DNA of 64,000 nucleotides from Coriobacteriaceae bacterium. GTDB lineage: Bacteria > Actinomycetota > Coriobacteriia > Anaerosomatales > SLCP01. The DNA is taken from assembly GCA_003563465.1 (NCBI GenBank), contig PWVH01000129.1, positions 429 to 64,428 of the forward strand, written 5' to 3'. The position numbers and the translations under genes are program-made. Of the stretch, positions 15,880 to 64,000 are shown piece by piece (the stretch's first letter is position 1; each line of letters begins with the position of its first letter). Below the pieces are notes generated by a model. That model did not search any database. It had not been told where the DNA came from and saw nothing but the letters and a program-made list of their open reading frames with translations.

Positions 15880-15952
15880 CAACACCTCCTGCAAGACATC
15901 CGTCTTGCCGTCTGCCGTGAATCAAAGCTCTATTCGCTGTTCACTCTCTAGA

Positions 15953-22227: not shown

Positions 22228-22239
22228 TTCCGCTCCCTC

Positions 22240-23427: not shown

Positions 23428-23428
23428 G

Positions 23429-23758
23429 CTACTTCACCTCCGGGAGTTCGCAGCCCTCGGGCACCATCGTGATGGCCTCCACGGGACATTCGTTGGCGCA
23501 GACACCACAGCCTTTGCAGTGGTCGAGATCGAAAGTGTCGTCGGCCAGTTTCTCGTTCTCAACCCGCACCGCGGTATCCGGGCAGAACACCCAGCAAAGA
23601 AGACAATCTGTGCACGTCTCCACATCACGGACGGGACGCTCGCTACGCCAGCCACCGGTAACATAGTCGCGCGAGTTGCCAGCGTCCGGAATGACACCGC
23701 GGAGGGGGAACTGCTCCGCTTTCCAGGCGTTCATCTTCGAGATATCCCATTTGCTCAT
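23429..23758 (-). CDS. porD: Pyruvate/2-oxoacid:ferredoxin oxidoreductase, delta (2x[4Fe-4S]) subunit
   Basis: 109 aa with CTDCLLCWVFCP and CKGCGVCANECP. Confidence 0.9.
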   Translation of the reverse strand: MSKWDISKMNAWKAEQFPLRGVIPDAGNSRDYVTGGWRSERPVRDVETCTDCLLCWVFCPDTAVRVENEKLADDTFDLDHCKGCGVCANECPVEAITMVPEGCELPEVK

Positions 23759-24330
23759 GCTACGACCACCTCCTCGTATGCGCGATCCACTGATGCAATA
23801 TTGGCGTCGATGATCTCCTGGCCGAACTTCTTGCCGAAGGTCACCTCAAGTAGCGACTTCACCGTGTCTATGTCTACCGCCTCCGTGACTTTGGCGAGTG
23901 CGCCGATCATCGGAGTGTTCGGGATGTCGCGCTTGATAGTATCTAGAGCGATGCCCGAAGCATCCAGGCACGCGACGGTGACGCCATCCGCCACCCCTAA
24001 AGAGCGCTTCGCCGCATCAGGGGGAGTGCAGGTGTTTATGATGACCGTTCCATCGTCGACCAGGCCCTCGGTGACATCCACGACGTCGAGCAGGGAATCA
24101 TCGAGGACGATAACCACATTGGGGTGCTCGATGTTGCAGTGGATGTCGATGGGGTCGGGACTGATACGGGTGAACGCCTTGATCGGAGCTCCCATACGCT
24201 CGGGGCCATACTCGGGCATCGCCTGCATGTACTTGTCTGCTGCAAGCGCAGTCTCGGCCACCAGTTTGGCGGCGGTCACTGCTCCTTGGCCGGCACGTGC
24301 ATGCCAGCGAATCTCGGTGAGTTGCTCCAT
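23755..24330 (-). CDS. porG: Pyruvate/2-oxoacid:ferredoxin oxidoreductase, gamma subunit
   Basis: 191 aa with HARAGQG...AA motifs. 4-nt overlap with the delta gene. Confidence 0.9.
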   Translation of the reverse strand: MEQLTEIRWHARAGQGAVTAAKLVAETALAADKYMQAMPEYGPERMGAPIKAFTRISPDPIDIHCNIEHPNVVIVLDDSLLDVVDVTEGLVDDGTVIINTCTPPDAAKRSLGVADGVTVACLDASGIALDTIKRDIPNTPMIGALAKVTEAVDIDTVKSLLEVTFGKKFGQEIIDANIASVDRAYEEVVVA

Positions 24331-27263: not shown

Positions 27264-27337
27264 CTGATCCCTTCCACACTCCGACAGCTTGCGTATCAGA
27301 CCCCGAGTATAGCGGGACGCACCGATGGGGCATCGGA

Positions 27338-27458
27338 CATGCAACGCCCCCGAGCGGGGCCCGAACACCCGGCAGAGGACGCTTATGGCTGCTTCCTCCC
27401 GGATCTGACCAGGTTCACGCCTTACCGCCGTCCGGACCCCGCTCGGGGGCGTCCATGC
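27338..27458 (-). ncRNA. ffs: Signal recognition particle RNA (small/4.5S-type)
   Basis: Minus strand contains CCUGGUCAGAUCCGGGAGGAAGCAGCCAUAAGCG, near-identical to the E. coli 4.5S domain IV CCAGGUCAGGUCCGGAAGGAAGCAGCCAAGGCAG. It is closed by a perfect 16-bp helix ACGCCCCCGAGCGGGG / CCCCGCTCGGGGGCGT. TATACT (-10) lies at 27474-27469. Immediately upstream of dnaX, the classic synteny. Ends are good to about +/-5 nt. Confidence 0.85.
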
Positions 27459-27557
27459 GCGAGCGTACAGTATATGCCCGGCGGTTGTCTTCGGCCACAC
27501 ATCCGCTCGTTCACTGCCTTTCCGGGGAACACTATTGTTACACGGGAAGGAGGCCAG

Positions 27558-28727
27558 ATGATGGAAGCTCTTGATCGTGACACTGTTCTCTCGCTGGCCC
27601 AGCATGACGAGTGGCCCGCAATCTCCATCTATCTCCCCGCTCACCGGGCCGGCACCGAAAAACAGCAGGACCCGATTCGCCTCAAGAACCTCCTCAAACA
27701 AGCCGAGGAGGTTCTCGCCCAGCATGGCATCCGGACGCCCGAAGTCACCACACTTCTGGCACCGGCGTGGGGCGTTCAGAAGGATCCTGCTGTATGGCGG
27801 GAAGGATTCGAGGGTCTCGCGCTCTTCCTCGGAGAGCAGTCGTTTCGCGCAGTCCGTACCTCTCGGACGCTCCCGGAGCGTACTCGCGTTGGCGAGCGGT
27901 TCCTCATCCGTCCTCTGCTTACTGCGCTCGCTCCAGAAGTGCACTTCTACGTGCTGGCCCTGAGCAAGAACCGGATACGGCTGTTCGAGGGAAGTACCAA
28001 CGAGATACGAGAGATGGATCCCGCAGGCATCCCTCAGGGCCTGGCCGAGACCCTCAAATACGATGACTACGAGAAGCAGGTTCAGTTCCACTCGCGCACA
28101 CCGGCAGCCGCAGCAGGACGTGGACGCCGGGCTGCCGTCTTCCACGGGCACGGAGGGACCGCGGATACGGCGAAAGAGGATCTCTTGCGATACTTCCGCC
28201 AGGTAGACCGTGGTCTGAAGGAGCTCCTCGGCGACAGTAGTTCATCGCTGTTGCTCGCAGGAGTGGATTATCTGCTGCCTATCTACGGGGAGGCCAACAC
28301 CTATCCTCGGCTCGTCCCCGAGGGAATCAAGGGAAACGTCGACGAGCAGCCTGCAGGCGAGATCCACGCAGAGGCGCTAGACCTGCTCCAGCCGTATCTC
28401 CGACACGAACTCGAATCTGACCTTGCCGCACTGGCAGAAGCGCACAAAGGCCCTATGGCTTCCACGGAGATCGCCGACATCATCGCTGCTGCTCACGTAG
28501 GCCGCGTGCGCACTCTGTTCGTAAGCGACGACAACGGTGCATGGGGAAGATTCGAGCCCGCAACAGGCGAGGTTGAGATTCGTGACGAGCCTCAGCCCCA
28601 AGACCACGATCTTCTCGACTTGGCAGCTTCGCAGACCTTGCTGCACGGAGGCTCGGTCTACGTCATGACACCCGAGGAGGCCGTCACCGAGGTCGGAGCA
28701 TCGGCGGCAGCCATCTTCCGCTACTGA
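27558..28727 (+). CDS. Conserved hypothetical protein, probable bacterial archaeo-eukaryotic release-factor-like (baeRF) family
   Basis: Real start at ATG 27558 (GGAAGGAGG upstream). N-terminal PAISIYLPAHRAGTEKQQDPIRLKNLL motif. The C-terminal GRVRTLFVSDD...LLHGGSVYV...AAIFRY resembles eRF1/Pelota domain 3. Family assignment is from memory. Confidence 0.55.
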   Translation: MMEALDRDTVLSLAQHDEWPAISIYLPAHRAGTEKQQDPIRLKNLLKQAEEVLAQHGIRTPEVTTLLAPAWGVQKDPAVWREGFEGLALFLGEQSFRAVRTSRTLPERTRVGERFLIRPLLTALAPEVHFYVLALSKNRIRLFEGSTNEIREMDPAGIPQGLAETLKYDDYEKQVQFHSRTPAAAAGRGRRAAVFHGHGGTADTAKEDLLRYFRQVDRGLKELLGDSSSSLLLAGVDYLLPIYGEANTYPRLVPEGIKGNVDEQPAGEIHAEALDLLQPYLRHELESDLAALAEAHKGPMASTEIADIIAAAHVGRVRTLFVSDDNGAWGRFEPATGEVEIRDEPQPQDHDLLDLAASQTLLHGGSVYVMTPEEAVTEVGASAAAIFRY

Positions 28728-51965: not shown

Positions 51966-52014
51966 TTAGCGTCGATCCGTCGGTCGTTCCAGACGGCGGG
52001 GAGGCGCAACCAGG

Positions 52015-53050
52015 GTGTCTATGACGATGGCGGAGAAGCACGCGGTGACGAGGAAGCTTTCCGAGAGGTACCGGCGGGCGCGCAAGCTGGAGAAGAGCGC
52101 GCTCATCGACATGTGCTGCGAGGTGACCGGATACAGCCGGGACCACGCCGCGCGCCTGCTGCGCGCAGGCCCGCCCGCAAAGCGGCCGGCGAAACGCCGG
52201 AGGGTGCGCAGACGGACCTACGACGCCGAGGTGCTGTTCGCGCTGAGACGGGTGTGGGCCACACTGGACGGCGCATGCGGCAAGCGGGTCGCCGCGGTCA
52301 TGGGGCAGACCGTCGGCGCGATGGAGCGCCACGGCGAGCTCATGATCTCTTCTGAGGCCCGCGCAAAGCTCCTTGCCGTATCGGCGGCCACGATCGACCG
52401 TATGCTCGCGCCGGATAGGGCCAAGCTCGCCTTGAAGGGACGTGTCGGGACCAAGCCCGGCACGCTGCTCAAGCACCAGATCCCGGTCAAGACGTTTGCG
52501 GAGTGGGACGAGGCGCGTCCGGGCTTCGTCGAGATCGATCTGGTGGGCCACGACGGAGGTGTTCTGCGCGGGGAGCACTGCCAGACCCTCGACGTCACCG
52601 ACGTGGCGACAGGCTGGACTTAAGACGCGAGCGGTGCGCAACAAAGCGCAGGTCCACGTCTTTGCCGCACTGAAGGAGATCCGCGCGGCCCTTCCCTTTC
52701 CGCTGCTCGGCATCGACTCGGACAACGGCAGCGAGTTCATCAACCATGAACTCTACCGCTACTGCCAAGACAAGCGGATCACGTTCACCCGCTCGCGCGC
52801 CTACCGCAAGAACGACAGCTGCTACGTCGAGCAGAAGAACTGGTCGGTGGTGCGGCGCAATGTCGGCTACGCGCGCTACGACACCCTCAACCCCGTTGCG
52901 CTCAAGCGTGAGATCGCAGGCTCACAGAAGCGGCTCTACGAGCTCGTCTCGCTCAAGGAATCGATCAGGAGAAGGGAGGTGCAGACACCCGATCTCGACG
53001 ACATCTATGATGAGTCAACGAATGTGTCCTTCGACGACATTCTTACGTGA
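52015..53050 (+). pseudogene. DDE (integrase-core/rve-like) transposase, frameshifted near 52621 and probably internally deleted
   Basis: ORF 52015-52623 ends ...DVTDVATGWT*, and the reading continues in the +1 frame as ..TRAVRNKAQ...GIDSDNGSEFIN...EQKN. The D, D, E candidates are present. The combined length of about 345 aa looks short, and YDT is joined directly to LNPVALKREI. Confidence 0.75.
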
Positions 53051-53056
53051 GGCAAC
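53027..53056 (+). repeat. Right terminal inverted repeat of the IS
   Basis: TCCTTCGACGACATTCTTACGTGAGGCAAC. The transposase stop codon (53048-53050) lies inside it. Confidence 0.75.
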
Positions 53057-53130
53057 GGGGCGGGAGAACGCATTTGGCGTCTTCTCGAGACCGTTGACTA
53101 CGCTTCACTGTACGTGGGAACCAACTCGGC

Positions 53131-54717
53131 ATGGACGGACTCAGCACTTCCGAGATAGACAAAGCCACGCGATTCCGGGTCTTGGTTGTCACGATCCTTG
53201 GGGCGGGCGTCGTCTTTCTCGACTCGAGCGTCGCCAACATCGCCTTGCCTGCGATCCAGCGCGACCTCGATGTGTCAACAGCGCTTCTGCAGTGGGTCGC
53301 CTCGGGTTATCTGCTGACACTCTCTGTCCTTCTACTCGTCGGCGGTAGATTGGCGGATGTGTTCGGCAGACGACGGATGTTCGTCGCCGGGCTGACCTTC
53401 TATGCACTGCTTGCCGCAGCGGCAGGACTGGCCCCAAACGGTCTGGCGCTGGCCGGAGTGCGCTCCGTGCAGGGCATCGCCGGAGCCATGCTGGTTCCGA
53501 CTACACTCGCGTTGATCAACGCGACCCATCCCGTCAACGAACGAGGGCGAGCAATCGGCATCTGGGCGGGCTGGTCCGGCATTACGACCATTCTGGGGCC
53601 TGTCCTGGGCGGATTCGTGATCGACAATCTATCTTGGCGTTATGCTTTCTTCATCACGCCTGTGGTCGCGTTGGTGGCGCTCGCGCTGTCGCGCAGGGTG
53701 CCCGAATCCAGCGACCCAGACGCCTCTCGCGCCGCGGATCTCCTCGGCGTGCTGCTGTCCTGTGCCGCATTCGGTGGCATCGTGTTCGCCCTCATCCAAG
53801 GTCCGATAGCCGGTTGGGACTCCACCGAGGTAATCGCTGCCGGGACGATCGGCCTCTTGCTGCTTCCGATCTTCGTGATGTGGGAGCGACGTGCAAGCGA
53901 CCCGATGCTCCCGCTAGAGATGTTCGCAAACCGCAACCTCGTCGCGGCCAACGCGGTCACCCTGTTCGTGTACGCCGGCCTGTACGGAACCTTCTTCTAC
54001 GTCGCCCTGTACATCCAGACGACTCTAGCCGGATCCGCAACGATCGCCGGAGGCATGTTCGTCCCGATCACAGTGCTGCTCTTCTTCCTCTCGCCATACG
54101 CAGGCCGTCTGAACGACCGTTTCGGGCCGAGGTGGCTCATGTGCTTCGGACCTCTTGTCGCCGCAGCCGGACTCGTGGTTGCCAGCCTTACCGGACCTGG
54201 TCAGCTTTGGACTGTGTTGATGCCGGGTATCGTTCTCTTCGGCATCGGACTCGGATTCACAGTCGCCCCCGTGACCGCAACCGCCATAGGCGCCGCCGAA
54301 GAACGCTTTTCTGGAGTGGCCTCGGGTTTCAACAACGCGGTCTCACGCGTCGCTGGCCTGCTGGCAATCGCGGCGATGGGAGTGATAGTCGTGCAGCTTT
54401 GGCAGACCGGAATCACCGTGGAGAGCGCCAGTGCCTCCCCAGCGGTCGCGACCGCTCTGGAGGCCGTCGGATTCCAGGCCTTCGTGCTGCCCGACACCAG
54501 CGAGCTAACAGCTCAGCAGGCAGCCGAGGCGACTCGCCTGGCGGGCGAGGTGGCCCGCCGGTCCTTCCGTAACGGAATGCTGCTCGCGGCTGCCTTGGTG
54601 GGGCTCGGCGGGCTGATATCCGCCGTATTCGTGCGCAGTCCCTCCCGCACGGACGGTCAAGAGATATCAGTCACCCGCTCCCCCAGCCAGCTAGAGTGCG
54701 TCACGCGAGAATGCTAG
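53131..54717 (+). CDS. MFS transporter, DHA2 (EmrB/QacA, 14-TMS) drug:H+ antiporter family
   Basis: 528 aa, LDSSVANIALPAIQ N-terminus, GRLADVFGRRR motif A, 14 predicted TM helices. Confidence 0.9.
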   Translation: MDGLSTSEIDKATRFRVLVVTILGAGVVFLDSSVANIALPAIQRDLDVSTALLQWVASGYLLTLSVLLLVGGRLADVFGRRRMFVAGLTFYALLAAAAGLAPNGLALAGVRSVQGIAGAMLVPTTLALINATHPVNERGRAIGIWAGWSGITTILGPVLGGFVIDNLSWRYAFFITPVVALVALALSRRVPESSDPDASRAADLLGVLLSCAAFGGIVFALIQGPIAGWDSTEVIAAGTIGLLLLPIFVMWERRASDPMLPLEMFANRNLVAANAVTLFVYAGLYGTFFYVALYIQTTLAGSATIAGGMFVPITVLLFFLSPYAGRLNDRFGPRWLMCFGPLVAAAGLVVASLTGPGQLWTVLMPGIVLFGIGLGFTVAPVTATAIGAAEERFSGVASGFNNAVSRVAGLLAIAAMGVIVVQLWQTGITVESASASPAVATALEAVGFQAFVLPDTSELTAQQAAEATRLAGEVARRSFRNGMLLAAALVGLGGLISAVFVRSPSRTDGQEISVTRSPSQLECVTREC

Positions 54718-54779
54718 TTTCCTCGGCTATCGCAGATTCCCGAGTGCGAGATAGCACGAAAGTGGAATGTACTTGACAT

Positions 54780-55220
54780 ATGGCAGATCGAATTGACGGG
54801 GTGACCGAGGTGAAGATTGAAGAACTCAAGGACCGGATTCCCGATGTCCGAGAACGCCTGCCTGAGGTTCGCGAACGCATAGAGTCATGGCGCGAGAACC
54901 TTCCAGAGACCCAGACCACAGAAGCCGCCGCAGGTGCTGCGCTTTTCGGCCTCGGGACTCTTGTAGCTGCACTGAATCTTCTTGCAGAACGTCGCAGCGC
55001 GTGGGCCTGGGCTCTCCCTGCCGTCCTGCTTAGCGGAGGAGCAGCTTTGCTCGTCGCGGCGGCCTTGGAGCAACGCAAGGGCCGTATCCTGCAAGCTGAG
55101 GAAGTGGTCCGTGAAGAACTCGACCGACTGGATCCGGTTGCTCGTGCCCAGGTACTCAAAGAGGTGGCAGAGGGCGAAATCGCACGGTTCAGCAAGCAGC
55201 CAAGTGGTGCAGAGGCCTGA
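54780..55220 (+). CDS. Hypothetical membrane protein (two TM helices flanked by charged helical segments)
   Basis: Codon usage looks coding and the competing antisense ORF is Ser/Arg-rich junk. No recognised family, and the RBS is weak. Confidence 0.5.
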   Translation: MADRIDGVTEVKIEELKDRIPDVRERLPEVRERIESWRENLPETQTTEAAAGAALFGLGTLVAALNLLAERRSAWAWALPAVLLSGGAALLVAAALEQRKGRILQAEEVVREELDRLDPVARAQVLKEVAEGEIARFSKQPSGAEA

Positions 55221-55381
55221 GCACGCCCGCAAGCCCCGGCTTCGGCGCCCGCGCTGCCCCGCGGACCTGAAAGACGCTGACGGGCACGGTTTCTTGAACG
55301 GCCTCGGCTCTCCGGTCGCGCTACGCTTCATATGCGAGCCGCTGCGGAATCTGGAATGAAAAGCAGCACAAGAAACGGAGA

Positions 55382-56242
55382 CTAGACGCCCACCCCTGTC
55401 AACGCCGCGCTCACTTCCCAGAGCCGACGCTGTCCTTCCTTATCCATGCTCACTGGCAGCGAACGGTGGGTTCGCCGTTTGAAGAAGTAGGCTCCGCTGA
55501 TCCCGTCCACCTTTTCCGATGATGCAAGCCATACAAGAGTGTCGGCACCCTGCTCAGGGCTGACGGCGATCAACTCGGTCGCTCGACCGACGACCGTTCC
55601 GAACAGGCCGTAGCCCTCCTTACCGAAATCACTCCTTACCCGACCCGGATGCATGACCGTACTCGTAACACCGGTGCCCTCCACACGGCGTGCGTGCTCG
55701 TAACAGAACATGATGTTCGCCAGTTTCGAGTGGGCGTAGGCACCGAACGGCCACCATCCCGTTTCGAACGTGAGATCGTCAAAGCGTATACCTCGCCACG
55801 CCAAGTAGTGGGAATCGCTGGATACAGTCACCACTCGTGCAGGTGCCGATGCGCGCAAGAGTGGCTCCAGAATGGAGCAGAGCATGAAGTGAGCGAGATG
55901 ATTGACCTGGAAGGTCATCTCGTTGCCATGTTCGGTTATGCGACGCTCCGGGTAGATCGCCCCTGCGTTGGCTATTAACACGTCGAGACGGTCATACCTC
56001 CGAATGTACTCGTTTGCCGCGGAACAGACGGAGAAAAGGTCGGACAGGTCGCAGATGAGAAGCTCGGTGCGCTCGTTGCCGGTCTCCTCGGCGATTGCAC
56101 GGCATGCTGCCTCACCTCGCTCGGCACTGCGCACGAGCATCACCACATCGGCGCCCATTCGCGCAAGATCGCGGGCCGCGACCAGACCGATGCCCCTGCT
56201 GGCACCTGTTATGAGCACTCGCTTTCCGCGCATGTCAACCAT
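55382..56242 (-). CDS. Short-chain dehydrogenase/reductase (SDR, retinol-dehydrogenase-like)
   Basis: VLITGASRGIG, NAG, YAHSK (YxxxK). Start at ATG 56242 (GGGAGG 6 nt upstream). Confidence 0.88.
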   Translation of the reverse strand: MVDMRGKRVLITGASRGIGLVAARDLARMGADVVMLVRSAERGEAACRAIAEETGNERTELLICDLSDLFSVCSAANEYIRRYDRLDVLIANAGAIYPERRITEHGNEMTFQVNHLAHFMLCSILEPLLRASAPARVVTVSSDSHYLAWRGIRFDDLTFETGWWPFGAYAHSKLANIMFCYEHARRVEGTGVTSTVMHPGRVRSDFGKEGYGLFGTVVGRATELIAVSPEQGADTLVWLASSEKVDGISGAYFFKRRTHRSLPVSMDKEGQRRLWEVSAALTGVGV

Positions 56243-56317
56243 GTGCCGCCTCCCACTCAAAGAACGGAACGCTCAAGTGTCCCGACAGATGATACCCGGA
56301 ACGCTCCGCTTTCTGCT

Positions 56318-57223
56318 TCACGCCCGCGAGTCGACGCCGATAAGCCCACCGACGGCACGCCATGCGGAGACGACCGCGGCCATGCCCGGAGAGGCGGTGC
56401 CCGGCTCGTAATCCCGCCATCCGAATCGCATGGTAGGTAAAGCGGCTATGTCCGGTGCGTACGGTATCTCGGCGATCAGAGGCAGACCCCTTTCGGCACA
56501 GAACTCGCGTATCCAGTCGGCTCCCTCGGCTGAAAGGTCCGCCTTGTTCAGAATGACTGCCACCCCAAGATCGAAGCGATAGGCCAACTCCGCCAGCCTG
56601 GCCAGATCGTGGACCCCGGAGACGGTAGGTTCTGCTATGGCTACGAGCAGGTCCGTATCTGCTAAGGCAGCGATAGCCGGGCACCCCACACCCGGCGGGC
56701 CGTCGATGAGCAGCAGATCCGCATCGCAGTCATCGGCTTCCTTCAGGCCGAGGCGACGCACCTCGGTCACCAGCTTACCGGACAGGTCTTCGCCAGGCAG
56801 CAAGCTGCCGAACGACATCCGGCCTGCCGAACTCGTCCCGGCGCACATGCTCCCCGCCGCACCGGTTTCCATCTTGATCGCACCGGCCTTGCAGACACGA
56901 GCGCACGCTCCGCACCCTTCACAGGAGAGCTGGTCGAAAACGTAGACGCCCGCTTCGTCCCGCAAGATCGCCCCGAAGCGGCACACTGTCTGACAGGCTC
57001 CACAGGCTTTGCAGGACTCCGTATCGACCGTTGCCTTGGCGCCACCTTTGAAGTCCTCGCACGAAGCTTCCTCGACTCCGAGGGCGATAGGTAGATTGGA
57101 GCCCTCGACATCCGCGTCAACCAAGACCGTACAACAGCTTTTCGCGGCGAGGTGGGCAAAGAGTGCCGTCAGCGTAGTCTTTCCGGTGCCTCCCTTGCCG
57201 GAGGCGATCACGACACTCTTCAT
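56318..57223 (-). CDS. MinD/ParA-superfamily P-loop ATPase with an inserted 2x[4Fe-4S] ferredoxin domain (COG1149 type)
   Basis: SGKGGTGKTT deviant Walker A. Ferredoxin insert CKACGACQTVCRFGAI and CEGCGACARVCKAGAI. ATGA overlap with the upstream paralog. Confidence 0.85.
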   Translation of the reverse strand: MKSVVIASGKGGTGKTTLTALFAHLAAKSCCTVLVDADVEGSNLPIALGVEEASCEDFKGGAKATVDTESCKACGACQTVCRFGAILRDEAGVYVFDQLSCEGCGACARVCKAGAIKMETGAAGSMCAGTSSAGRMSFGSLLPGEDLSGKLVTEVRRLGLKEADDCDADLLLIDGPPGVGCPAIAALADTDLLVAIAEPTVSGVHDLARLAELAYRFDLGVAVILNKADLSAEGADWIREFCAERGLPLIAEIPYAPDIAALPTMRFGWRDYEPGTASPGMAAVVSAWRAVGGLIGVDSRA

Positions 57224-58182
57224 CGGCCCGCTCTCTCTCGAAGACCGTCGGCCGCACTCGGAGCACTTCCTTCGGCGACATCTTCGATCCAGCTGGAGAT
57301 TGTCCGGAGCCAGCTCGTCGCCTCGGGTAGTTCGTCCACTATCAGCCCTCCCCGAGCATAGACCTCGGCTATCCTGCGATCGAAGGGAATCCGTCCGACC
57401 ACATCTACACGCTGGGCCGTCGCGAACTCAGCGATGTCCGTCGGGCCACTGCCATCGCGATTCACCACAACGCCGATCGGTAGACCCATGTCGCTTCCGA
57501 GCATCAGACTGAGTTCCAGGTCGTGCAGGCCAAAAGCAGTCGGCTCCGTGACCAGAAGCAGTGCGTCAGCATGGCGCACGGCGGCCACCGCCGAACATGC
57601 CACACCAGGTGGAGCGTCGAGAACCAGGATGTCGGCATCCCACCGCTCGGCCTCTTCGCGAGTCGCACCGATCAAAGAGGGGGCCTTAACCTGGCCGATA
57701 TCCAGCCTACCCGTCACGAGTCGAAGACGCTGTGAGCGTTTGGCGACGCCGGTGGATACCTCTCCGACACGTAGAGAGCATTCGCCCATAGCCCCTGTCG
57801 GGCATGAAGACACGCAAACACCGCACCCGTGGCATATCTCCTCGAAGACCACCGGTGTTCCGCCGAGGATACGGACCGCACCGAAGGCGCAAAGATCGCT
57901 GCACGTGCCGCAAGCGTTGCACGCCTGGGAATCCGGCCGAGCTACCTTCGACTCGACAGACGTGAGTTTGTCCGTACGCGCGGGAAGAAAGAGATGGCTG
58001 TTAGGAGCTTCTACATCGCAATCGGCAAGCAGTACAGAAAGACCGGCGTCGGCCCAGAGAACCGCAAGGTTGGTGGCCACCAACGTCTTTCCTGTACCGC
58101 CTTTACCTGAAGCGACCGCAAGGATGAAGGGGGCGTATCCGTCTGCCAGCTCGCAACGATCAGCAGCTGCTCTCGATCTCAC
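57220..58182 (-). CDS. Second MinD/ParA-type P-loop ATPase with an inserted ferredoxin domain (COG1149 type)
   Basis: SGKGGTGKT; CNACGTCSDLCAFGAV and CHGCGVCVSSCPTGAM. Start chosen at GTG 58182 (GGAGG 9 nt upstream); GTG 58200 is the alternative. Confidence 0.85.
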   Translation of the reverse strand: MRSRAAADRCELADGYAPFILAVASGKGGTGKTLVATNLAVLWADAGLSVLLADCDVEAPNSHLFLPARTDKLTSVESKVARPDSQACNACGTCSDLCAFGAVRILGGTPVVFEEICHGCGVCVSSCPTGAMGECSLRVGEVSTGVAKRSQRLRLVTGRLDIGQVKAPSLIGATREEAERWDADILVLDAPPGVACSAVAAVRHADALLLVTEPTAFGLHDLELSLMLGSDMGLPIGVVVNRDGSGPTDIAEFATAQRVDVVGRIPFDRRIAEVYARGGLIVDELPEATSWLRTISSWIEDVAEGSAPSAADGLRERAGR

Positions 58183-58184
58183 GC

Positions 58185-58562
58185 CTAGTGGCCTCCGCAC
58201 ACGAACCTGTCATCCATGGGCTCGACCTCGCCAGCCAAAAGGAGGTCGACCACATCGCCGATTCCCGGCGTGACGTTGTCGAAGTATACGTCGATGCCGA
58301 CCTCATTGAACCCCGCAAGCGGGCGAGCCCCCATGCCAGCAACCACGAGAGCGTTCACTCCGTGCGATGCAAGCAGCTGGACTGGCTGAAGACAACCACC
58401 ATCGACATGCGGTGGATTGTCAATGACCCGGACGTCGGAGACCTTGCCGTCACTGATCTCTACGAGAGTGAACTTATCGCAACGGCCGAAGTGACCCGAC
58501 CGCTCGCCTTCGAGTCCGCCCTCCCCGACAGAGGGGACCGCAAGCAGAATGCTGTCTGGCAT
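58185..58562 (-). CDS. NifX/NifB-C-terminal-like (dinitrogenase FeMo-cofactor-binding domain, COG1433) protein
   Basis: SGHFGRCDKFTLVEI ... VNALVVAGMGARP pattern of PF02579. Start at ATG 58562 (GGAG 6 nt upstream). Confidence 0.85.
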   Translation of the reverse strand: MPDSILLAVPSVGEGGLEGERSGHFGRCDKFTLVEISDGKVSDVRVIDNPPHVDGGCLQPVQLLASHGVNALVVAGMGARPLAGFNEVGIDVYFDNVTPGIGDVVDLLLAGEVEPMDDRFVCGGH

Positions 58563-58610
58563 GCCTATCTCCATTCCGTTTCGGTAACCATTTCCCAGCT
58601 TGCCAACGCT

Positions 58611-58973
58611 CTATCGCATGCCAGCATGAGCGGTTCCTTCGTCAAGAGCAGGAAGACGCCCCTCAGCGAGCGCTTTCACTGCCTCTCGGACAGTAAGTCC
58701 CGTCCCTTTGTAACCTGTGATTCCCGCCGCGCCGAGTGCACGGTAGGCTTTCGGACCGAGATGACCCGTGATCACTGCATCGGAACCGCGTTCGCTGACC
58801 AGTTCTGCAGCGCCTATGCCGGCTCCTTGGAGCGCATCGACGTTCGCTGCGTTATCCACAGCATCGAAGGACATCGATTCAGAGTCGACGATCACGAGGT
58901 ATCGCGCTCTGCCGAAGCGCTCATCCACCTGATCGTCTAACGTGGGGCCGAGGGCGGCGACTGCGACCTTCAC
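58611..58973 (-). CDS. Second NifX/NifB-like (COG1433) protein
   Basis: ERFGRARYLVIVD ... DAVITGHLGPKA. GTG 58973 overlaps the DUF5320 TGA (GTGA). Confidence 0.8.
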   Translation of the reverse strand: MKVAVAALGPTLDDQVDERFGRARYLVIVDSESMSFDAVDNAANVDALQGAGIGAAELVSERGSDAVITGHLGPKAYRALGAAGITGYKGTGLTVREAVKALAEGRLPALDEGTAHAGMR

Positions 58974-59194
58974 AGCCACCGACCCCATCCACGTCGATAT
59001 CCGAGGCCAAGGTGCCGCCTTTCGGCGGGCGATCTCATGCCGCGACCCGGTCGAAGCCCTCTGCCGAAAGCAGCGAATCTTCGCAAGCCTGTAGCGCGCC
59101 TGCGAAAGACTTCCGCGTCTTCTATGCAGTAGCCGCGACCGCCACCGGTCATCTCTCCCTCGCCGAGCGGTCCTGTCCTATCGAATCCAGGCAT
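58970..59194 (-). CDS. DUF5320-family small Gly/Arg-rich protein
   Basis: MPGFDRTGPLGEGEMTGGGRGYC matches the remembered DUF5320 N-terminus (MPRGDGTGPMG..MTGRG.GYC). Confidence 0.7.
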   Translation of the reverse strand: MPGFDRTGPLGEGEMTGGGRGYCIEDAEVFRRRATGLRRFAAFGRGLRPGRGMRSPAERRHLGLGYRRGWGRWL

Positions 59195-59220
59195 CGTTGC
59201 ACCTCCGTTCCAGTAAGGTC

Positions 59221-59625
59221 CTACTTCTCTGTCTTCTCGCTTCCGAGCGCGCTTTCCAGCGCATCGGAGAGCACGCTGGCAAGCCTCTCGCGTTCTCGAA
59301 GATGGGCGACCCAGTGAGCTGCCAACTCGCGTCCGTCTTCGGTGAGCTGGTACTCACGCCTTTGTGGTCCGGACTCGCCCTCGGCCCAATTGGATGTGAC
59401 CAAGCCCTCTTCTTCCATCCGCCTGAGAACACGGTAGAGACCGCCAGCATCGACAAGTATCTCGCCGTCTGTCAGTTCTTCGATCACTCTCCGGAGGTCG
59501 TAGCCGTGACCGCTCGAAGAGACTAGCGCCGCAAGGGCAGCCGGCTCAACGAGAGCGCCTCGGCCTCCGCCTCGACCGCGCCCGACGCCGCAACAGCGTC
59601 TATGGCCTGGCCCGTAATCGCGCAA
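59221..59625 (-). CDS. PadR-family transcriptional regulator with a Gly/Arg/Cys-rich N-terminal extension
   Basis: GYDLRRVIEE...GGLYRVLRRMEEEGLV...REYQLTEDGRE winged-helix motifs. TTG start with AGGAGG 8 nt upstream. Confidence 0.85.
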   Translation of the reverse strand: MRDYGPGHRRCCGVGRGRGGGRGALVEPAALAALVSSSGHGYDLRRVIEELTDGEILVDAGGLYRVLRRMEEEGLVTSNWAEGESGPQRREYQLTEDGRELAAHWVAHLRERERLASVLSDALESALGSEKTEK

Positions 59626-59670
59626 AGAAAGCGACCTCCTCTGATTAGCGCGAGATATATGTCCAAAACA

Positions 59671-59699
59671 ACTATATGCGGTTCACATCTAGATGTCAA
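59671..59699 (-). promoter_or_regulatory. Near-consensus sigma70 promoter of the padR-led operon, with an overlapping 12-bp palindrome
   Basis: Minus strand reads TTGACA (59699-59694), a 17-nt spacer, then TATAGT (59676-59671). The perfect palindrome ACATCTAGATGT at 59685-59696 overlaps the -35 and spacer. Confidence 0.6.
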
Positions 59700-59799
59700 C
59701 GTCTGTTTCTTGCTTGATTCTTACTGCGCTGGGATTGCGGACGCCCGCCGAGTCTCTTCGGCATGGGTTCTCGACTGGCGCTGGGCTGGGCTGGCTGGG

Positions 59800-60171
59800 C
59801 TAGTCCGGCAGCTCCAGCTCGTTCACCACTTCGGTCTTCAGCATCTTGACCAGAGCCAGGAGGGCCTCCACGACGTTTTCTCGGATGTCGCCAGCCACGA
59901 GCACGTACATGATGTCATCACCCACGGCCAGCTTGCCTTCGTTCACCCAGGCGCGCACGTGTTTCACGCCCTCCATGAGGCGAGCCGTGTCGAGCACCTC
60001 AGCCAATCTCGTACGGTCGACCGAGAGCTCCATACCGGTCACCGGATCTCCGCCACGTGAATGGCCACGCACGACTCCGTTGTGAACCAGGTACATGCCC
60101 ACACCTTCGACCTCCCCGCCACCCTTGATCTCCGCCAGCCAAGTGTCCAGTGATGGTCTCGTATCATGCAT
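59800..60171 (-). CDS. Small MoaE-like (molybdopterin-synthase large-subunit fold) protein, function unknown
   Basis: 123 aa. The pattern G..LVHNGVVRG...V..ME....(helix)...V.VNEGKLAVGDDIMYVLVAGDIRENV..AL...V..LK resembles the MoaE core but lacks the PIWKKE tail. Assignment is from memory. Confidence 0.5.
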   Translation of the reverse strand: MHDTRPSLDTWLAEIKGGGEVEGVGMYLVHNGVVRGHSRGGDPVTGMELSVDRTRLAEVLDTARLMEGVKHVRAWVNEGKLAVGDDIMYVLVAGDIRENVVEALLALVKMLKTEVVNELELPD

Positions 60172-60268
60172 GGCACACCCGCCTATCCGCTCTCATGGTT
60201 TCACTTCGGCGACCTTCGCAGACAAGTGTAGATCAGCCGTTGCCGGCAACGAAGGCTGAGTCTCGCTC

Positions 60269-61855
60269 TCATGACGAGCATGGGAATCGCAGACGGTCCA
60301 GGAAACTCAGGTACGCGGGATCGCGCATGAAAGCACGGATGCGTTTGCGGCCGATCGCAAGAAAACTCGTCGGCGCGTACTTGTACTCCGCGTGAATCCT
60401 TACCCACTCGAACAGCCGCTTCGGGAATGCAAGTTCGGCCAGATAGGCACGTTGGCCCTTCCCCAGCAACCTGTGCCGGAAGAACGTGCCTCTCAGCGCG
60501 GAGAGAGCAACCCGCCAGATGGAGTAGAAGCGTCGGTACTCCTTGGTCACGAAGCGCTGCATCTCCTGCGGTGTCATCCGATCCGGTTTCAAGACCACAT
60601 GCATTCCATCAAATAGCGCCAGGTCTTCAATTCTCGAGAACAGCATTCTGTTCGTCTTGAGATGCTCGCGCGTCCGTTTGGTCCCCGGCAAGGGCGTCTC
60701 GAACAGGTATTGCAGCGACGTGACGCACTTCTTCGCGTAGTCGCAGTTGCGACGGATGATCTCGCGCGTATCACTCGGCAAGGCTATGAACATACCGTGC
60801 ACTACTAGCCCGTAGCGTCGCATGGCGCGTAACGCGCGGGACATGCGAGAGCTATCTATGAGCTTGTGGAGCTGATCTAGGTTCGCATCATCCGCAGACT
60901 CTACGCCCACGCACACGACAGTGACCCCCGCCACCTTCTTCAGCAGACGCAAGAGCTCGCGATCGAGCCGGCCTTCGGACGTAAGTGCGGCGCTCGCGTG
61001 CATCTGGACGACCAGCATGCGGCTGAAGCCCTTTTCGGACACCGAGCGCAGGAACTGCTTGAACGAGGGTTTGTTAGCCGCGGCGTTGTCGTCGATCAGG
61101 AATGTGGTGCGAAAACCTTCGTCCCAGGCTCGCACCATCTCGCCGACGCTAGACCCATCTTGACGCACTACGTAGCGTGGCCAGATCTCGCACACCTCAC
61201 AGAAGTCGCATCTGCGTGTACATCCCCGAGAACGCCAGACAGCGGCCACGGAGATACGATGCGCTTGGTGCACGAGCGACCTGTCCACAAATGGCAACGC
61301 GTCGAGCTCTTCCCGGCTCAGCTGCTGTGGTGGAGGCCCTTTGCGGAGTCGGTCTTCCTCCCTCCAGACGAGCCCGGGAATGGCTTCAAGTGATTCGCCG
61401 TCTTGCCCCAGAAGTGCCACCACCAAACGAGGCAGCGTTATCTCGGCCTCTCCACGCAGAACGTAGTCTGCGCCGACAAGGATGCTCCGCTCAGGTTCAC
61501 ACGTAGGCTCGGGACCGCCGAAGACGATCTTCGCCTGCGGGTTGATCGCCCGTGCCTGCTCGAGCAAGCGTTGCGTCCTGGGCACCGTGCAAGTGATCGC
61601 CGAGAAACCGACCACATCGGCGCCGGCTACGAAATCCCAGTCGACGGAACCCTCGCCGCTGATGTCCTCGATGAATGCCTTGGCGTCGTGTCCTGCATCT
61701 CGCAGCACCGTGGCAAGCAGCGGAATCCCTCGGCCCATAGCCACGTGAGAGTAGATATTGAGACCGGGTGACCCGGCTTCGATGAGGGCCACGCGTCCAC
61801 TGCGCGGCGCCTCGGTGGTCGCCACAGCAGCCTCCTTAGGATCGTCTTGCTCCAT
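60269..61855 (-). CDS. B12-binding-domain radical SAM protein (COG1032 type)
   Basis: N-terminal Rossmann-like cobalamin-binding region, SRGCTRRCDFCEV (CxxxCxxC), and a long C-terminal domain. Start uncertain (ATG 61855, 61900 or 61936). Confidence 0.85.
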   Translation of the reverse strand: MEQDDPKEAAVATTEAPRSGRVALIEAGSPGLNIYSHVAMGRGIPLLATVLRDAGHDAKAFIEDISGEGSVDWDFVAGADVVGFSAITCTVPRTQRLLEQARAINPQAKIVFGGPEPTCEPERSILVGADYVLRGEAEITLPRLVVALLGQDGESLEAIPGLVWREEDRLRKGPPPQQLSREELDALPFVDRSLVHQAHRISVAAVWRSRGCTRRCDFCEVCEIWPRYVVRQDGSSVGEMVRAWDEGFRTTFLIDDNAAANKPSFKQFLRSVSEKGFSRMLVVQMHASAALTSEGRLDRELLRLLKKVAGVTVVCVGVESADDANLDQLHKLIDSSRMSRALRAMRRYGLVVHGMFIALPSDTREIIRRNCDYAKKCVTSLQYLFETPLPGTKRTREHLKTNRMLFSRIEDLALFDGMHVVLKPDRMTPQEMQRFVTKEYRRFYSIWRVALSALRGTFFRHRLLGKGQRAYLAELAFPKRLFEWVRIHAEYKYAPTSFLAIGRKRIRAFMRDPAYLSFLDRLRFPCSS

Positions 61856-61980
61856 CCTCCTCGGCACATGCGCACCACGCGCCCCGCTCACATGCCGCAT
61901 GATTGTTATCTTCCCACACCATGACTCAAGGCGCATGAAGGTTGGTTATGCTCTCACCGTACGATGAATCGGGAGCGATG

Positions 61981-62880
61981 ATGACTCGATATACCGATCT
62001 AAGTACGACCGGAGAACTAGCCCGCCGAGCAGAGCGGGCACGGGCCGAACTCGTGAACTGCAAGGTATGCCCACACGAGTGCCTGGTAGACCGCCTAGCA
62101 AGGCAGCGAGGCCTTTGTCGTGCTGGAGCCCTTGCGCGCATCTCGAGCGCGGGACCACACTTCGGCGAGGAGGCCCCCCTCGTCGGGAGACGTGGATCTG
62201 GCACGGTGTTCTTCGCTTGGTGCAACCTTCACTGCGAGTTCTGCCAGAACGCCGACATATCCCAGTTCGGACACGGAGAGGATATGGCCGCCGAGGAGCT
62301 TGCCGAAGTCTTCGTCGGCATTCAGACCGCTGAATGCGAGAACCTCAACCTCGTAAGCCCCACGCATTTCACTCCGCAGATCCTCGCCGCACTCGATATC
62401 GCAGCCGAACAGGGTCTTACCCTCCCCATCGTGTGGAACACCGGCGGCTACGAATCCCTCGACACACTGGAGCTTCTCGATGGAGTGGTCGACATCTACA
62501 TGCCCGACTTGAAATACGCCGACGCCGAGACCGCATTGCGTCTCGCGGGAGCGAGCGACTATCCCGACCGGGCGTTCGCTGCCGTGCGTGAGATGCATCG
62601 ACAGGTCGGCGACCTCGCGATCGGGAAGCACGGTTCCGCTACCAGGGGTTTGCTCGTGCGTCACCTCGTCCTACCAGCTGAGCTTTCGGGGACCGCCGAG
62701 GTCATGCGTTTTCTTGCCGAGGAGGTTTCCAGCGACACGTACGTAAACGTCATGGACCAATACCGCCCCTGTCACAGAGCTCACGAAACGCCCGAGCTAT
62801 CCAGACCTGTCACAGCAAGCGAGTACGAAGCTGCCCTCGACAGCGCGCGTGTCGCCGGGCTGCACCGATTCGCACGGTAA
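61981..62880 (+). CDS. PflX-type radical SAM protein (COG1313, PFL-activase homolog)
   Basis: CKVCPHEC...GLC N-terminal Cys motif, GEEAPL, FFAWCNLHCEFCQNADIS. Start is probably ATG 61978/61981 (GGGAG upstream) rather than 61942. Confidence 0.85.
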   Translation: MTRYTDLSTTGELARRAERARAELVNCKVCPHECLVDRLARQRGLCRAGALARISSAGPHFGEEAPLVGRRGSGTVFFAWCNLHCEFCQNADISQFGHGEDMAAEELAEVFVGIQTAECENLNLVSPTHFTPQILAALDIAAEQGLTLPIVWNTGGYESLDTLELLDGVVDIYMPDLKYADAETALRLAGASDYPDRAFAAVREMHRQVGDLAIGKHGSATRGLLVRHLVLPAELSGTAEVMRFLAEEVSSDTYVNVMDQYRPCHRAHETPELSRPVTASEYEAALDSARVAGLHRFAR

Positions 62881-62908
62881 GGAAGGAATCGGGAACACTC
62901 ATTCTACG

Positions 62909-62960
62909 ACCAACCGATTGCCACCAACCGATTGCCACCAACCGATTGCCACCAACCGAT
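62909..62960. repeat. Perfect 14-bp tandem direct repeat ACCAACCGATTGCC x3.7
   Basis: Units at 62909-62922, 62923-62936 and 62937-62950, plus a partial unit at 62951-62960. It lies 29 nt after the PflX stop and 17 nt before the next ATG. Confidence 0.9.
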
Positions 62961-62976
62961 GCGATAGGTACCGGAC

Positions 62977-64000
62977 ATGCGCAAGATCGACTTCACAGAG
63001 CTGCTCGGAGTCGACCCTGTACCGTGGCTACTGGGCTATGGAGAGCCTTATGCCGTCTGGGCTACTTTGACGGATGTCCTCGGCATGGGCCGCGACGATT
63101 CCGAAGTCACTCAGGCGCATGCGGCGGTAATCGACGACGAAGGGGTGCGCCGTCTGATAGCCGAGTTGCCAGAGTGGGGCTCGGCCGATCAGACCGCGGG
63201 GCACCACACCGCGGGCTTTCTGCCCAACAGACTGAACCTTCTCGCCGACATGGGTGTCGGAGCCGGCGACTTCGGCCGCATCGAAGAGCTGCTCGACCGG
63301 ATGCTAGAAGACCAGGACTCGAGAGGACGCTTTCGGTCACCGGAAGAGACCGCAGGACGTCCGAAGCCCGAGCGGGGATCTTTGCTGTGCGACACCAACG
63401 TCATCACCGACGTGTTGATACGTTTCGGACGCGGCGGCGACTCGCGCGTTCATGCCGCGCTCGAACGCACGGCTGCCGATTTGGCGACAACCCCGCAGGG
63501 ACGTGCTTGGCAGTGCGTTCCCGAACAGCGCTCGCTGTTCAGAGGACCGGGCCGCAGGTCCGACGTTTGCCCTCAGATAACCCTGGAGGGTCTCAGGGCC
63601 TTCTCCCACAAGCCACGCGACAAGCGGCCACCAGCTGTCGCCGACGCGGCACGTACGCCACTTGAAACCTGGCGACGTCGCACCGAAGAGCGGCCCTACG
63701 GGTTCGGACACGGCTACCAGTTCAAGAGCGTCAGATGGCCGAACTTCTTCTACGACGTTCTTTGGGTTCTGGAGACGGTCGGACGCTATCCTGAGCTGTG
63801 GCGCGGCCCGCGTGCACGCAGCGAAGACCGTCGCTCGGTGGCAGAGCTGGCAGCATGCCTGATCGAGTACAACTTCAATCGTGATGGCACCGTGACCCCT
63901 CGGCGGACATATCAAGGGTTTGAGGAGTTCTCCTTCGGCCAGAAGCAATCTCCTTCTCCGTTCGCAACGGCTCGCTCGCTCGGCGCCCTCGTACGCGTGT
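62977..64000 (+). CDS. Hypothetical protein, 5' part only (runs off the window); possibly a prenyltransferase/terpene-cyclase-like alpha/alpha-toroid repeat protein
   Basis: Open frame from ATG 62977 to the window end (341 codons), absent from the ORF track. Reads MRKIDFTELLGVDPVPWLL... with repeated Q/D-x-x-(D/Q)G-x-(F/W)-like segments (DQDSRGRF, TPQGRAW, NRDGTV). High GC3, unlike the Arg-rich ORF 62946-63665 in another frame. Confidence 0.55.
   Translation, partial: MRKIDFTELLGVDPVPWLLGYGEPYAVWATLTDVLGMGRDDSEVTQAHAAVIDDEGVRRLIAELPEWGSADQTAGHHTAGFLPNRLNLLADMGVGAGDFGRIEELLDRMLEDQDSRGRFRSPEETAGRPKPERGSLLCDTNVITDVLIRFGRGGDSRVHAALERTAADLATTPQGRAWQCVPEQRSLFRGPGRRSDVCPQITLEGLRAFSHKPRDKRPPAVADAARTPLETWRRRTEERPYGFGHGYQFKSVRWPNFFYDVLWVLETVGRYPELWRGPRARSEDRRSVAELAACLIEYNFNRDGTVTPRRTYQGFEEFSFGQKQSPSPFATARSLGALVRV

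Follow-up and report, generated by a model that had tools for sequence, protein, structure and literature searches.

What is the role of an operon that combines two Fe-S ATPases with two small NifX-like proteins, a basic protein of the DUF5320 family and a PadR-type regulator? The question is raised by six consecutive minus-strand genes (59625 to 56318) in a 64,000-nucleotide stretch of DNA from a Coriobacteriaceae bacterium (contig PWVH01000129.1, positions 429 to 64,428), which we call the window. An earlier note on this DNA had read the genes as a metallocluster assembly and delivery machine. To judge from its relatives, the operon is the actinobacterial version of the anaerobe-specific orange protein (ORP) gene cluster known from Desulfovibrio, with a regulator of its own. 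The system is known by name and has some biochemistry behind it; the variant features found here are new.

The open reading frame (ORF) listing and Pfam scans returned six consecutive genes with the domains expected of them. The first is padR (59221..59625; PF03551 at 67.7 bits, cut-off 27), with a TTG start and an AGGAGG 8-9 nt 5' of it. After it come the DUF5320 gene (58970..59194; PF17253 at 36.8 bits, cut-off 27), the gene for an orange-protein (Orp8-type) PF02579 protein, NifX-like-2 (58611..58973; PF02579 at 74.9 bits; alternative in-frame ATG at 58988), and the gene for a Cys/His-bearing PF02579 protein, NifX-like-1 (58185..58562; PF02579 at 65.5 bits; alternative ATG at 58574). The last two encode ATPase A, or ATPase-2 (57220..58182; CbiA, ParA and Fer4 in Pfam; alternative GTG start at 58200), and ATPase B, or ATPase-1 (56318..57223; CbiA/ParA-type and Fer4). 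Read directly from the sequence, 26 nt separate padR from the DUF5320 gene, which shares a GTGA overlap (58973-58970) with the orange-protein gene. From there to the NifX-like-1 gene the gap is 48 nt with the ATG at 58562, which has GGAG ahead of it, or 36 nt with the ATG at 58574. The NifX-like-1 gene lies 2 nt from the ATPase A gene if the latter starts at GTG 58182 and overlaps it with GTG 58200, and the two ATPase genes are translationally coupled through an ATGA overlap (57223-57220). The six-gene minus-strand operon, its junctions and the strong promoter ahead of it are all as the earlier note had described them. Gene calls in the closest related loci have the same short junctions; L001, L003 and L008 repeat the six-gene order, and L002, L007 and L009 have a five-gene form that lacks DUF5320. 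Chance is far from sufficient to explain this arrangement. ATPase-1 has its nearest homologues, at 50-71% identity, in metagenome-assembled genomes of Coriobacteriia, Thermoleophilia and Anaerosomatales.

To which known system do these genes belong? The best Protein Data Bank (PDB) match of NifX-like-2 is the orange protein of D. gigas (Megalodesulfovibrio), 2WFB (E 2.5e-24, residues 2-109 aligned). The two proteins are of the same size and align over nearly their full length, and both NifX-like-2 and the aligned 109 residues of D. gigas ORP are cysteine-free. Two metagenome loci, L005 and L006, contain ORP orthologues 68-75% identical to D. gigas ORP beside a pair of MinD-Fer4 ATPase genes and another gene for a PF02579 protein, and in BLASTP all four core proteins of the window pair one-to-one with these ORP-anchored loci. 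NifX-like-2 is 49-51% identical to their ORP, and NifX-like-1 is 45% identical to their second PF02579 protein, encoded by the gene after the ATPase pair. ATPase A is 37-42% identical to their first ATPase, as against 30-32% to the other paralogue, and ATPase B 38-43% to their second ATPase, being separated from the other paralogue mainly by score and E-value. The link to the Orp proteins of D. vulgaris goes via D. gigas ORP (2WFB), the ORP-anchored L005 and L006, and the Desulfovibrionaceae contig L069, which has the ATPase-ATPase-PF02579 order found in the window. By position, these comparisons would make NifX-like-1 the counterpart of Orp5. Among named NCBIfam models, only MrpORP matched several operon proteins, and these matches were partial (20-59 bits, cut-off 450).

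In D. vulgaris, Orp3, Orp4, Orp5, Orp8 and Orp9 are pulled down as one physical complex, and in both Orp3 and Orp4 there is a pair of [4Fe-4S] ferredoxin motifs (PMC6345978, PMC8359166). Orp3 co-purifies with Orp4 and Orp8, and MrpORP (Orp9) passes Fe-S clusters to apo-Orp3-Orp4-Orp8 in vitro (PMC6345978). The orp operons are under OrpR, a sigma54 activator and [4Fe-4S] redox sensor that turns them off as the potential rises (PMC8359166). In Archaeoglobus fulgidus, the homologous genes AF2378-AF2380 show constitutive high expression (PMC3949148). Compared indirectly with the counterparts of D. vulgaris Hildenborough (Orp3/DVU2103, Orp4/DVU2104, Orp5/DVU2105, OrpR/DVU2106, Orp8/DVU2108 and Orp9/MrpORP/DVU2109), the window has in common two paralogous MinD-type ATPases with two [4Fe-4S] ferredoxin motifs each, an orange-protein-type PF02579 protein with a second member of that family as putative counterpart of Orp5, an adjacent dedicated transcription factor that bears cysteines, and an anaerobic host. 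The differences lie elsewhere. The host is an actinobacterium, whereas that of the D. vulgaris system belongs to Desulfobacterota; a single sigma70-type operon stands in place of two divergent sigma54 operons; and where D. vulgaris has an enhancer-binding protein of PAS-[4Fe-4S] type, the window has a PadR with a Cys-Cys extension at its N-terminus. The window cluster has a DUF5320 gene and lacks the Mrp/NBP35-Di-Nase fusion (MrpORP). No MrpORP or Mrp-like ATPase was found elsewhere in the 64 kb with the ATPase hidden Markov models (HMMs), which detect Mrp-like proteins at 31-68 bits. Within the window, then, what is new relative to the Desulfovibrio model is the PadR with its RPCCRR motif, the DUF5320 accessory gene, the single-operon layout and the missing MrpORP partner. 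The earlier note had counted reassignment to a characterised system against its reading, and this has happened in part: the module has a name and some biochemistry, while the function of the ORP system is still described as unclear (PMC8359166).

How widely is the module conserved? One genome per species was scanned with an alignment of B-type ATPases, and the 80 loci obtained represent about 25 or more bacterial and archaeal phyla, among them Desulfobacterota, Chloroflexota, Bacteroidota, Bacillota, Planctomycetota, methanogens, Bathyarchaeia and Thorarchaeota. The ORFs of these loci were then searched with HMMs from the window and from reference loci, a screen aimed at module components only. 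ATPase A is encoded immediately upstream of B in 69 of the 80 loci and is apparently fused to it in 4 others. A PF02579 gene lies within 3 kb of the B-type ATPase in 70 loci (46 of the 49 with room on both sides), and at least two such genes are present in 43. The other genes counted are a DUF5320 gene within 4 kb in 20 loci, a DUF134 regulator in 16, a Zn_ribbon_8 protein within 4 kb in 14 and a PadR in 9. A third P-loop ATPase, Mrp-like, is found in 20 loci, and all six of those tested are full-length Mrp/NBP35 proteins (PF10609). The earlier note's statement that the module recurs in anaerobic bacteria and archaea stands, though the module is no orphan of the literature but the ORP cluster.

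Among 1.84 billion cluster representatives (50%-identity clusters), 489 relatives of ATPase-1 were retrieved at E <= 1e-30. About 35 of the top matches are proteins of about 600 aa, and all 32 representatives tested proved to be A-B fusions in gene order, A then B. Because of these fusions and the ATGA coupling, the relationships strongly suggest that A and B form an obligate heterodimer. Fusions can be seen in the library representatives P0361-P0395 and in L053:5033-6913 and L068:3829-5682. Several orp-like clusters end in the Zn_ribbon_8 protein (L005:10669-10917, L006:10651-10905 and Desulfobacterota loci such as L028, L030 and L052), which in L005 and L006 has a Cys-rich C-terminus, GCCG...GCAGPG.CCGKA.

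What kind of ATPases are these? Exact-coordinate translation confirmed the deviant Walker A SGKGGTGKT and the two CxxCxxCxxxC motifs that the earlier note had reported in each, as well as the (H/R)FG motifs of both small proteins. On the minus strand, the Walker A motif of ATPase A occupies 58084-58110, its ferredoxin insert (C88-C127) 57802-57921 and its switch-II motif DAPPGVAC 57595-57618; in ATPase B the same elements lie at 57176-57202, 56891-57013 (C71-C111) and 56681-56704 (DGPPGVGC). In an alignment of 82 A-type and 88 B-type survey sequences, Walker A is invariant save for an occasional Thr, and the eight ferredoxin cysteines are invariant or very nearly so. The switch-II motif DxPPGxxC adds one more invariant cysteine, 7 residues past the Walker B aspartate. 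The same 7-residue spacing separates Asp125 and Cys132 of NifH, and the switch-II cysteine could contribute to an interface site.

The earlier note had classed both proteins as NifH/CooC-like, and this did not survive. The AlphaFold (AF2) model of ATPase-1 (predicted local distance difference test, pLDDT, 92.4; predicted template modelling score, pTM, 0.87) has MinD proteins as its top Foldseek neighbours (A. fulgidus 1HYQ, E. coli 3Q9L and P. horikoshii 1ION), with FlhG, Soj, HypB, Cfd1, NifH and BchL ranking lower; the ferredoxin insert is covered by no solved structure among the PDB matches. Of the NCBIfam ATPase models, minD_arch scores best (62.6 and 76.6 bits; cut-off 201.75), and minD_bact reaches 35-47 bits against 212.9. 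Fer4_NifH in Pfam matches ATPase-2 at 20.4 bits, below its 25-bit cut-off, and ATPase-1 not at all, and no CooC family is among the Pfam and NCBIfam matches listed for the two proteins. The NifH/CooC classification was rejected on these family scores and fold neighbours, and because the scores fall well below the MinD and NifH cut-offs alike, the ATPases are a distinct MinD-like subfamily. The fold, the DxD switch-I and a deviant Walker A including the signature lysine are common to them and to MinD, archaeal MinD included. Unlike MinD, the ORP-type ATPases carry a ferredoxin domain of about 60-90 residues after strand 2 together with the invariant switch-II cysteine, and the window operon has no MinC or MinE genes nearby.

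A MinD fold raises the alternative that the Fe-S ATPase pair is a spatial regulator, positioning the septum or another structure according to redox state, with the PF02579 proteins as regulatory subunits. Beyond the structural neighbours of ATPase B and the lead of minD_arch among the NCBIfam ATPase models, there is physiology to consider: inactivation of OrpR in D. vulgaris leads to morphological defects, MrpORP is found at the cell pole, Orp3 and Orp4 are said to have a C-terminal amphipathic helix, and a role of the ORP complex in cell division has been hypothesised (PMC6345978, PMC8359166). Both window ATPases also end in a Trp-containing helix, with W288 present in 83 of 85 sequences. In the ATPase-1 model, however, this helix (residues 281-290) has a pLDDT of about 95, which may fit a packed element better than a free membrane anchor. 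The minD_arch scores are far under the cut-off for that family, and what is conserved around the ATPase genes is of another kind: genes for cluster-binding proteins, for Mrp/NBP35 Fe-S carriers and for DUF5320. No MinC, MinE or FtsZ gene occurs in the operon or the surveyed neighbourhoods, which were screened for module components, and archaea whose division machineries are very different (Thorarchaeota, Bathyarchaeia and methanogens) also have the module. The cell-division reading is weakened because of these missing Min/Fts partners and unrelated division systems, and we consider it unlikely.

The ATPases could instead act as an ATP-coupled donor of low-potential electrons, like NifH, BchL and the activators of benzoyl-CoA reductase, that serves some reductase through the PF02579 proteins as adaptors. 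A dimeric deviant-Walker-A ATPase domain with two predicted [4Fe-4S] clusters per subunit would suit such a task, as would the invariant cysteine 7 residues past the Walker B aspartate, and NifH and BchL do figure among the structural neighbours, though lower in the list. Yet no catalytic partner is conserved beside the module, the Fer4_NifH score of ATPase-2 misses its cut-off, and an equivalent of Cys97, the second NifH-type cluster ligand, was not identified. We regard a donor of this type as quite improbable.

What might the two PF02579 proteins bind? NifX-like-2, the orange-protein orthologue, has no cysteine at all, which agrees with reports that ORP binds its cluster non-covalently. NifX-like-1 has the motifs HFGRC (58479-58493), GGC (58392-58400) and a C-terminal VCGGH (58188-58202), and across its orthologues HFGxC, GGC and C-terminal CGG(H) are retained; its three cysteines and its histidines are candidate ligands of a covalently bound Fe-S cluster. 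The protein is matched by the Di-Nase part of the NCBIfam MrpORP model (3.3e-12), and MrpORP's Di-Nase domain contains the analogous motifs CxHFGHCE and CDH (PMC6345978). Tandem PF02579-PF02579 proteins occur in three surveyed loci (L025:4156-4869, L032:3575-4294 and L037:3379-4092), where a Cys-bearing domain (HFGRC...CDH) precedes an ORP-type domain and the gene adjoins one for Mrp/NBP35.

That both small proteins match PF02579, 'Dinitrogenase iron-molybdenum cofactor', is the sole support for a further alternative, in which the operon encodes bona fide NifX/NafY or CooC (carbon monoxide dehydrogenase, CODH) maturation factors whose target enzyme is encoded elsewhere. Neither protein has a NifX, NafY or NifB equivalog match in NCBIfam or a NafY/NifX structure among its PDB matches. 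No nitrogenase component and no nif or CODH gene was found among the 49 window ORFs scanned against Pfam, about 39 of which lie outside the operon and its flanks, and none in the neighbourhoods read gene by gene; the absence of nitrogenase genes that the earlier note reported for the window thus holds. The module is also widespread in groups not known for nitrogen fixation. A role in nitrogenase or CODH maturation is essentially excluded. The logic of FeMo-cofactor assembly by NifH with NifX, NafY and NifB is nevertheless similar, a dimeric deviant-Walker-A Fe-S ATPase working with PF02579 carriers of an anionic metal-sulfur cluster, but the predicted Fe-S clusters of the window ATPases sit on the inserted ferredoxin domain and not at a NifH-type bridging site, the window has no nif genes, and its PF02579 proteins fall outside the NifX/NafY families.

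The DUF5320 protein (74 aa, pI 11.7; 17 Gly, 16 Arg, 8 aromatic residues and 1 Cys) begins with MPGFDRTGPLGEGEMTGGGRGYC. Its PF17253 match spans profile positions 1-48 of 99, and it lacks the C-terminal coiled-coil half of the family. The N-terminal motif MPxxDxTGPxGxGPMTGRGxGxC is common to the window protein and 23 further DUF5320-like ORFs from orp-like loci of many phyla. Fusions of an ORP-type PF02579 domain to DUF5320 are found in L025, L029, L039, L048 and L073 at or above the Pfam cut-off, and in L022 and L032 just below it. By these sequence criteria, DUF5320 is a genuine accessory gene of ORP-type clusters. A triple fusion of an ORP-type PF02579 domain, a DUF5320 domain and a 2x[4Fe-4S] ferredoxin is encoded in L073 (4112-4987). 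Basic Gly/Arg/Cys tails recur in the regulators and small proteins of orp-like clusters; L005:6942-7752, for example, encodes a DUF134 regulator with the C-terminal Gly/Arg/Cys tail CPLHGPYCRGRGRGCRRR, followed by a 112-aa Gly/Gln/Arg-repeat protein without a Pfam match.

The composition of DUF5320 recalls IssA, the thioferrate storage protein of Pyrococcus furiosus, which joins a PF02579/IPR003731 domain to a cationic Gly/Arg/aromatic tail with one cysteine that is proposed to wrap anionic thioferrate (PMC5524996). Its PF02579 relatives NifB, NifX and NafY likewise bind anionic Fe-S species, and MTH1175, which NifX-like-2 matches in the PDB search at E 5.8e-16, has been placed in the IssA clade (PMC5524996). 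In the window the tail-like part is a separate protein, whereas in other genomes it is fused to the domain. The likeness between DUF5320 and the IssA tail, drawn from the published description, is one of composition and fusion architecture, homology not being demonstrated. IssA also works without dedicated ATPases, unlike the module described here.

These parallels lead to the alternative that the operon serves the storage or detoxification of inorganic metal sulfides, be they thioferrate-like Fe-S or thiomolybdate/thiotungstate-copper species. Sequestration, in the manner of IssA, would fall to DUF5320 and the PF02579 proteins, and the ATPases would do no more than load or release what is sequestered. 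Such a role would agree with thioferrate binding by IssA and the IssA-clade match of NifX-like-2 (PMC5524996), with the non-covalent Mo-Cu-S cluster of D. gigas ORP (cited in PMC6345978), with the IssA-tail composition of DUF5320 and its fusion to ORP-type domains elsewhere, and with a MoaE-like gene just upstream here and in L001. It leaves two invariant 2x[4Fe-4S] ATPases and the frequent Mrp/NBP35 partner unexplained, however; the window DUF5320 lacks the coiled-coil half of the family profile, and the MoaE adjacency is confined to the closest relative. Dedicated storage is a rather unlikely account, although it overlaps the explanation we favour and differs from it mainly in physiological purpose.

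How is the operon controlled? A sigma70-type promoter, TTGACA-17-TATAGT (59671..59699, minus strand), agrees with consensus at 11 of 12 positions and is the only match in 55000-62200 (7.2 kb). Both hexamers are kept in seven related loci, whose promoter regions align as GTTGACATCTAGATGT-N6-CATATAGT. The spacer bases T13, A14, T17, G18 and T19 are invariant in these seven loci and form the palindrome ACAkCTAkATGT over the -35 box. In the window, a 20-bp palindrome, GTTGACATCT facing AGATGTGAAC (59681..59700), overlaps the -35 box and spacer; its arms are 90% complementary, and it is a candidate PadR operator. Its core ACATCTAGATGT (59685-59696) is a perfect palindrome that occurs once in the 64 kb. 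Past the -10 box of the window, 7 of 12 positions of the palindrome can be made out by eye, which we do not claim as a second operator; clear second copies are found in L003, L008 and L088. The candidate operator has the form ACA-N6-TGT, whereas classical PadR operators are described as ATGT-N8-ACAT. The motif also stands ahead of padR in L087 and L088. These two loci have two-gene modules (L087:5001-5845 and L088:5001-5821) in which a gene for a Cys-Cys PadR overlaps one for a Cys/His-bearing PF02579 protein behind the same promoter and palindrome motif, and they lack the ATPases, the orange protein and DUF5320.

The regulator itself belongs to PadR subfamily 2 (LmrR-type). In its AF2 model (mean pLDDT 86.6), residues 23-133 form a winged helix-turn-helix (HTH) and one long C-terminal helix, and the top Foldseek matches are LmrR and small PadRs. 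Like LmrR-type PadRs, it has the winged HTH with a single C-terminal dimerisation helix and is encoded first in its own operon; it differs from them in a disordered Gly/Arg/Cys extension of 22 residues at the N-terminus (residues 1-22, 59560..59625, minus strand; about pLDDT 50 in the model), with Cys11-Cys12 at 59590-59595. Both cysteines are invariant in 114 aligned PadR homologues, and the clade consensus, G-R-P-C-C-R-R-A-G-G-G, mostly lies 13 residues ahead of the VEP motif and first helix. The clade is small, with 336 matches at E <= 1e-8, and there are hints that many of its members are on the same contigs as ATPase matches. The earlier note had likened the extension to DUF5320. The two are alike in composition only: the DUF5320 HMM has no match on PadR at E <= 0.01, and homology was rejected. 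Autoregulation is to be expected because padR is first in its own operon, and redox control is plausible because OrpR sets a precedent for orp genes (PMC8359166). By analogy, we infer that PadR may be an autoregulated repressor whose Cys-Cys pair senses the redox state or cluster availability, which would make it a functional analogue of OrpR. No published PadR with a cysteine or cluster sensor was found in the searchable literature.

What, then, would the module do? We favour the explanation that an inorganic metal-sulfur cluster on the PF02579 carriers is handled in a process dependent on ATP and electrons, with DUF5320 as an accessory and PadR in control; we rate its chances as even. As in the Desulfovibrio work from which these steps are taken, A and B would form an ATP-dependent heterodimer, each subunit would carry two [4Fe-4S] clusters, and the heterodimer would bind both the cysteine-free orange protein and the Cys/His-bearing PF02579 protein. 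ATP-driven closure of the dimer might gate electrons through the ferredoxin inserts, and with these electrons an anionic, inorganic metal-sulfur species might be built, reduced or handed over. Candidates for that species are an Fe-S cluster and a thiometallate of the kind found in D. gigas ORP, whose cluster is Mo-Cu-S; the orange protein would hold it non-covalently, its Cys/His paralogue through covalent bonds. DUF5320, basic and rich in Gly, Arg and aromatic residues, may act in trans as the cationic tail of IssA does, neutralising or templating the anionic cluster. PadR would bind the palindrome over the -35 box and repress the operon; if its Cys-Cys pair sensed redox state or cluster availability as the [4Fe-4S] PAS sensor of OrpR does, expression would be confined to reducing conditions. 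Cluster handling draws its support from the domain fusions, from cysteines that are invariant, from Mrp/NBP35 genes recurring nearby and from the in-vitro cluster transfer in Desulfovibrio. The general idea of the earlier note, nucleotide-driven Fe-S ATPases working with cluster carriers, stays plausible.

Several points weigh against cluster handling. The nearest fold of the ATPases, as modelled, is that of the MinD positioning proteins and not of NifH or CooC, and the defects reported in D. vulgaris are morphological (PMC6345978, PMC8359166). An Mrp/NBP35 (MrpORP) donor, which Desulfovibrio and roughly one in four of the surveyed loci possess, is missing from the operon. Its orange protein has no cysteine, and the physiological relevance of the Mo-Cu cluster of that protein is not established; the Mo-Cu-S cluster itself was shown for Desulfovibrio ORP proteins only. 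The link to D. vulgaris is indirect, by way of D. gigas ORP and the ORP-anchored L005 and L006. The proposed sensor role of the PadR cysteines, the operator assignment and the analogy of DUF5320 with the IssA tail would each have to hold as well.

Few anaerobe-specific gene sets that lack a proven function are conserved as widely as the ORP complex, and although the core itself is not new, the comparative evidence makes that function more directly testable. The A/B fusions argue for an obligate heterodimer, the PF02579-DUF5320 fusions connect the orange protein with a basic family not yet characterised, for which they suggest an electrostatic role like that of IssA, and the recurrent Mrp/NBP35 neighbours point to Fe-S trafficking and away from cell division. 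A PadR with a conserved palindrome and an invariant Cys-Cys pair amounts to a simple regulatory switch that may parallel OrpR and, if it does sense, would be the first PadR reported with a cysteine or cluster sensor. It is tempting to go further and see in the module a widespread anaerobe-specific pathway for anionic metal-sulfur species, with DUF5320 as a free-standing IssA-like template, the orange protein and its paralogue as carriers, A/B as a reductase or insertase, and the RPCCRR-PadR as a new class of PadR that senses an Fe-S cluster, a thiometallate or redox potential by means of its disordered Cys-Cys motif, but this broader picture is tentative and on balance doubtful.

The operon is flanked by a short-chain dehydrogenase/reductase (SDR) gene (55382-56260) on one side and by MoaE-like, B12-radical SAM and second radical SAM genes on the other, as Pfam confirmed. 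All are where the earlier note had placed them, but the SDR and MoaE-like genes are neighbours and not core parts of the module, because they are kept only in the closest relative, L001. The MoaE-like protein is short (59800-60171, minus strand; 123 aa; PF02391 at 43.6 bits), and its gene lies directly upstream of the operon promoter, with an equivalent at 156-527 of L001. Between ATPase B and the SDR gene, a consensus scan placed a weak terminator-like hairpin (56265..56284, minus strand); such sites are no more numerous in the region than in shuffled sequence. A search for regulatory RNA gave no Rfam match in 52000-64000 at E <= 0.1. We take the long plus-strand ORFs over the operon (e.g., 57434-58273 and 58188-58940) to be shadows of its GC-rich coding strand. 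A partial match to an integrase core (rve), some 3 kb away from the operon (52442-53050, plus strand; 22.9 bits, below cut-off, profile positions 42-101 only), is probably a decayed transposase remnant.

Further away, the window encodes a 2-oxoacid:ferredoxin oxidoreductase (POR), HypD, a HypE-like protein and a HydS-like hydrogenase-GGDEF protein, and the host is therefore an anaerobe. HypD and the HypE-like protein, which has an AIR-synthase fold, lie at the start of the window (98-2248, plus strand), and the four POR genes (alpha, beta, gamma and delta) at 21298-24330 on the minus strand. The DnaX (clamp-loader tau/gamma) ORF (25437-28151, minus strand) is 904 aa long with its first Pfam domain from residue 316, so that it has either an over-extended start or a long N-terminal extension. 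The HydS-like protein of 602 aa (14086-15894, minus strand) combines 2x[4Fe-4S] and an [FeFe]-hydrogenase large-subunit domain with a C-terminal GGDEF diguanylate cyclase, and looks like a sensory hydrogenase coupled to c-di-GMP signalling.

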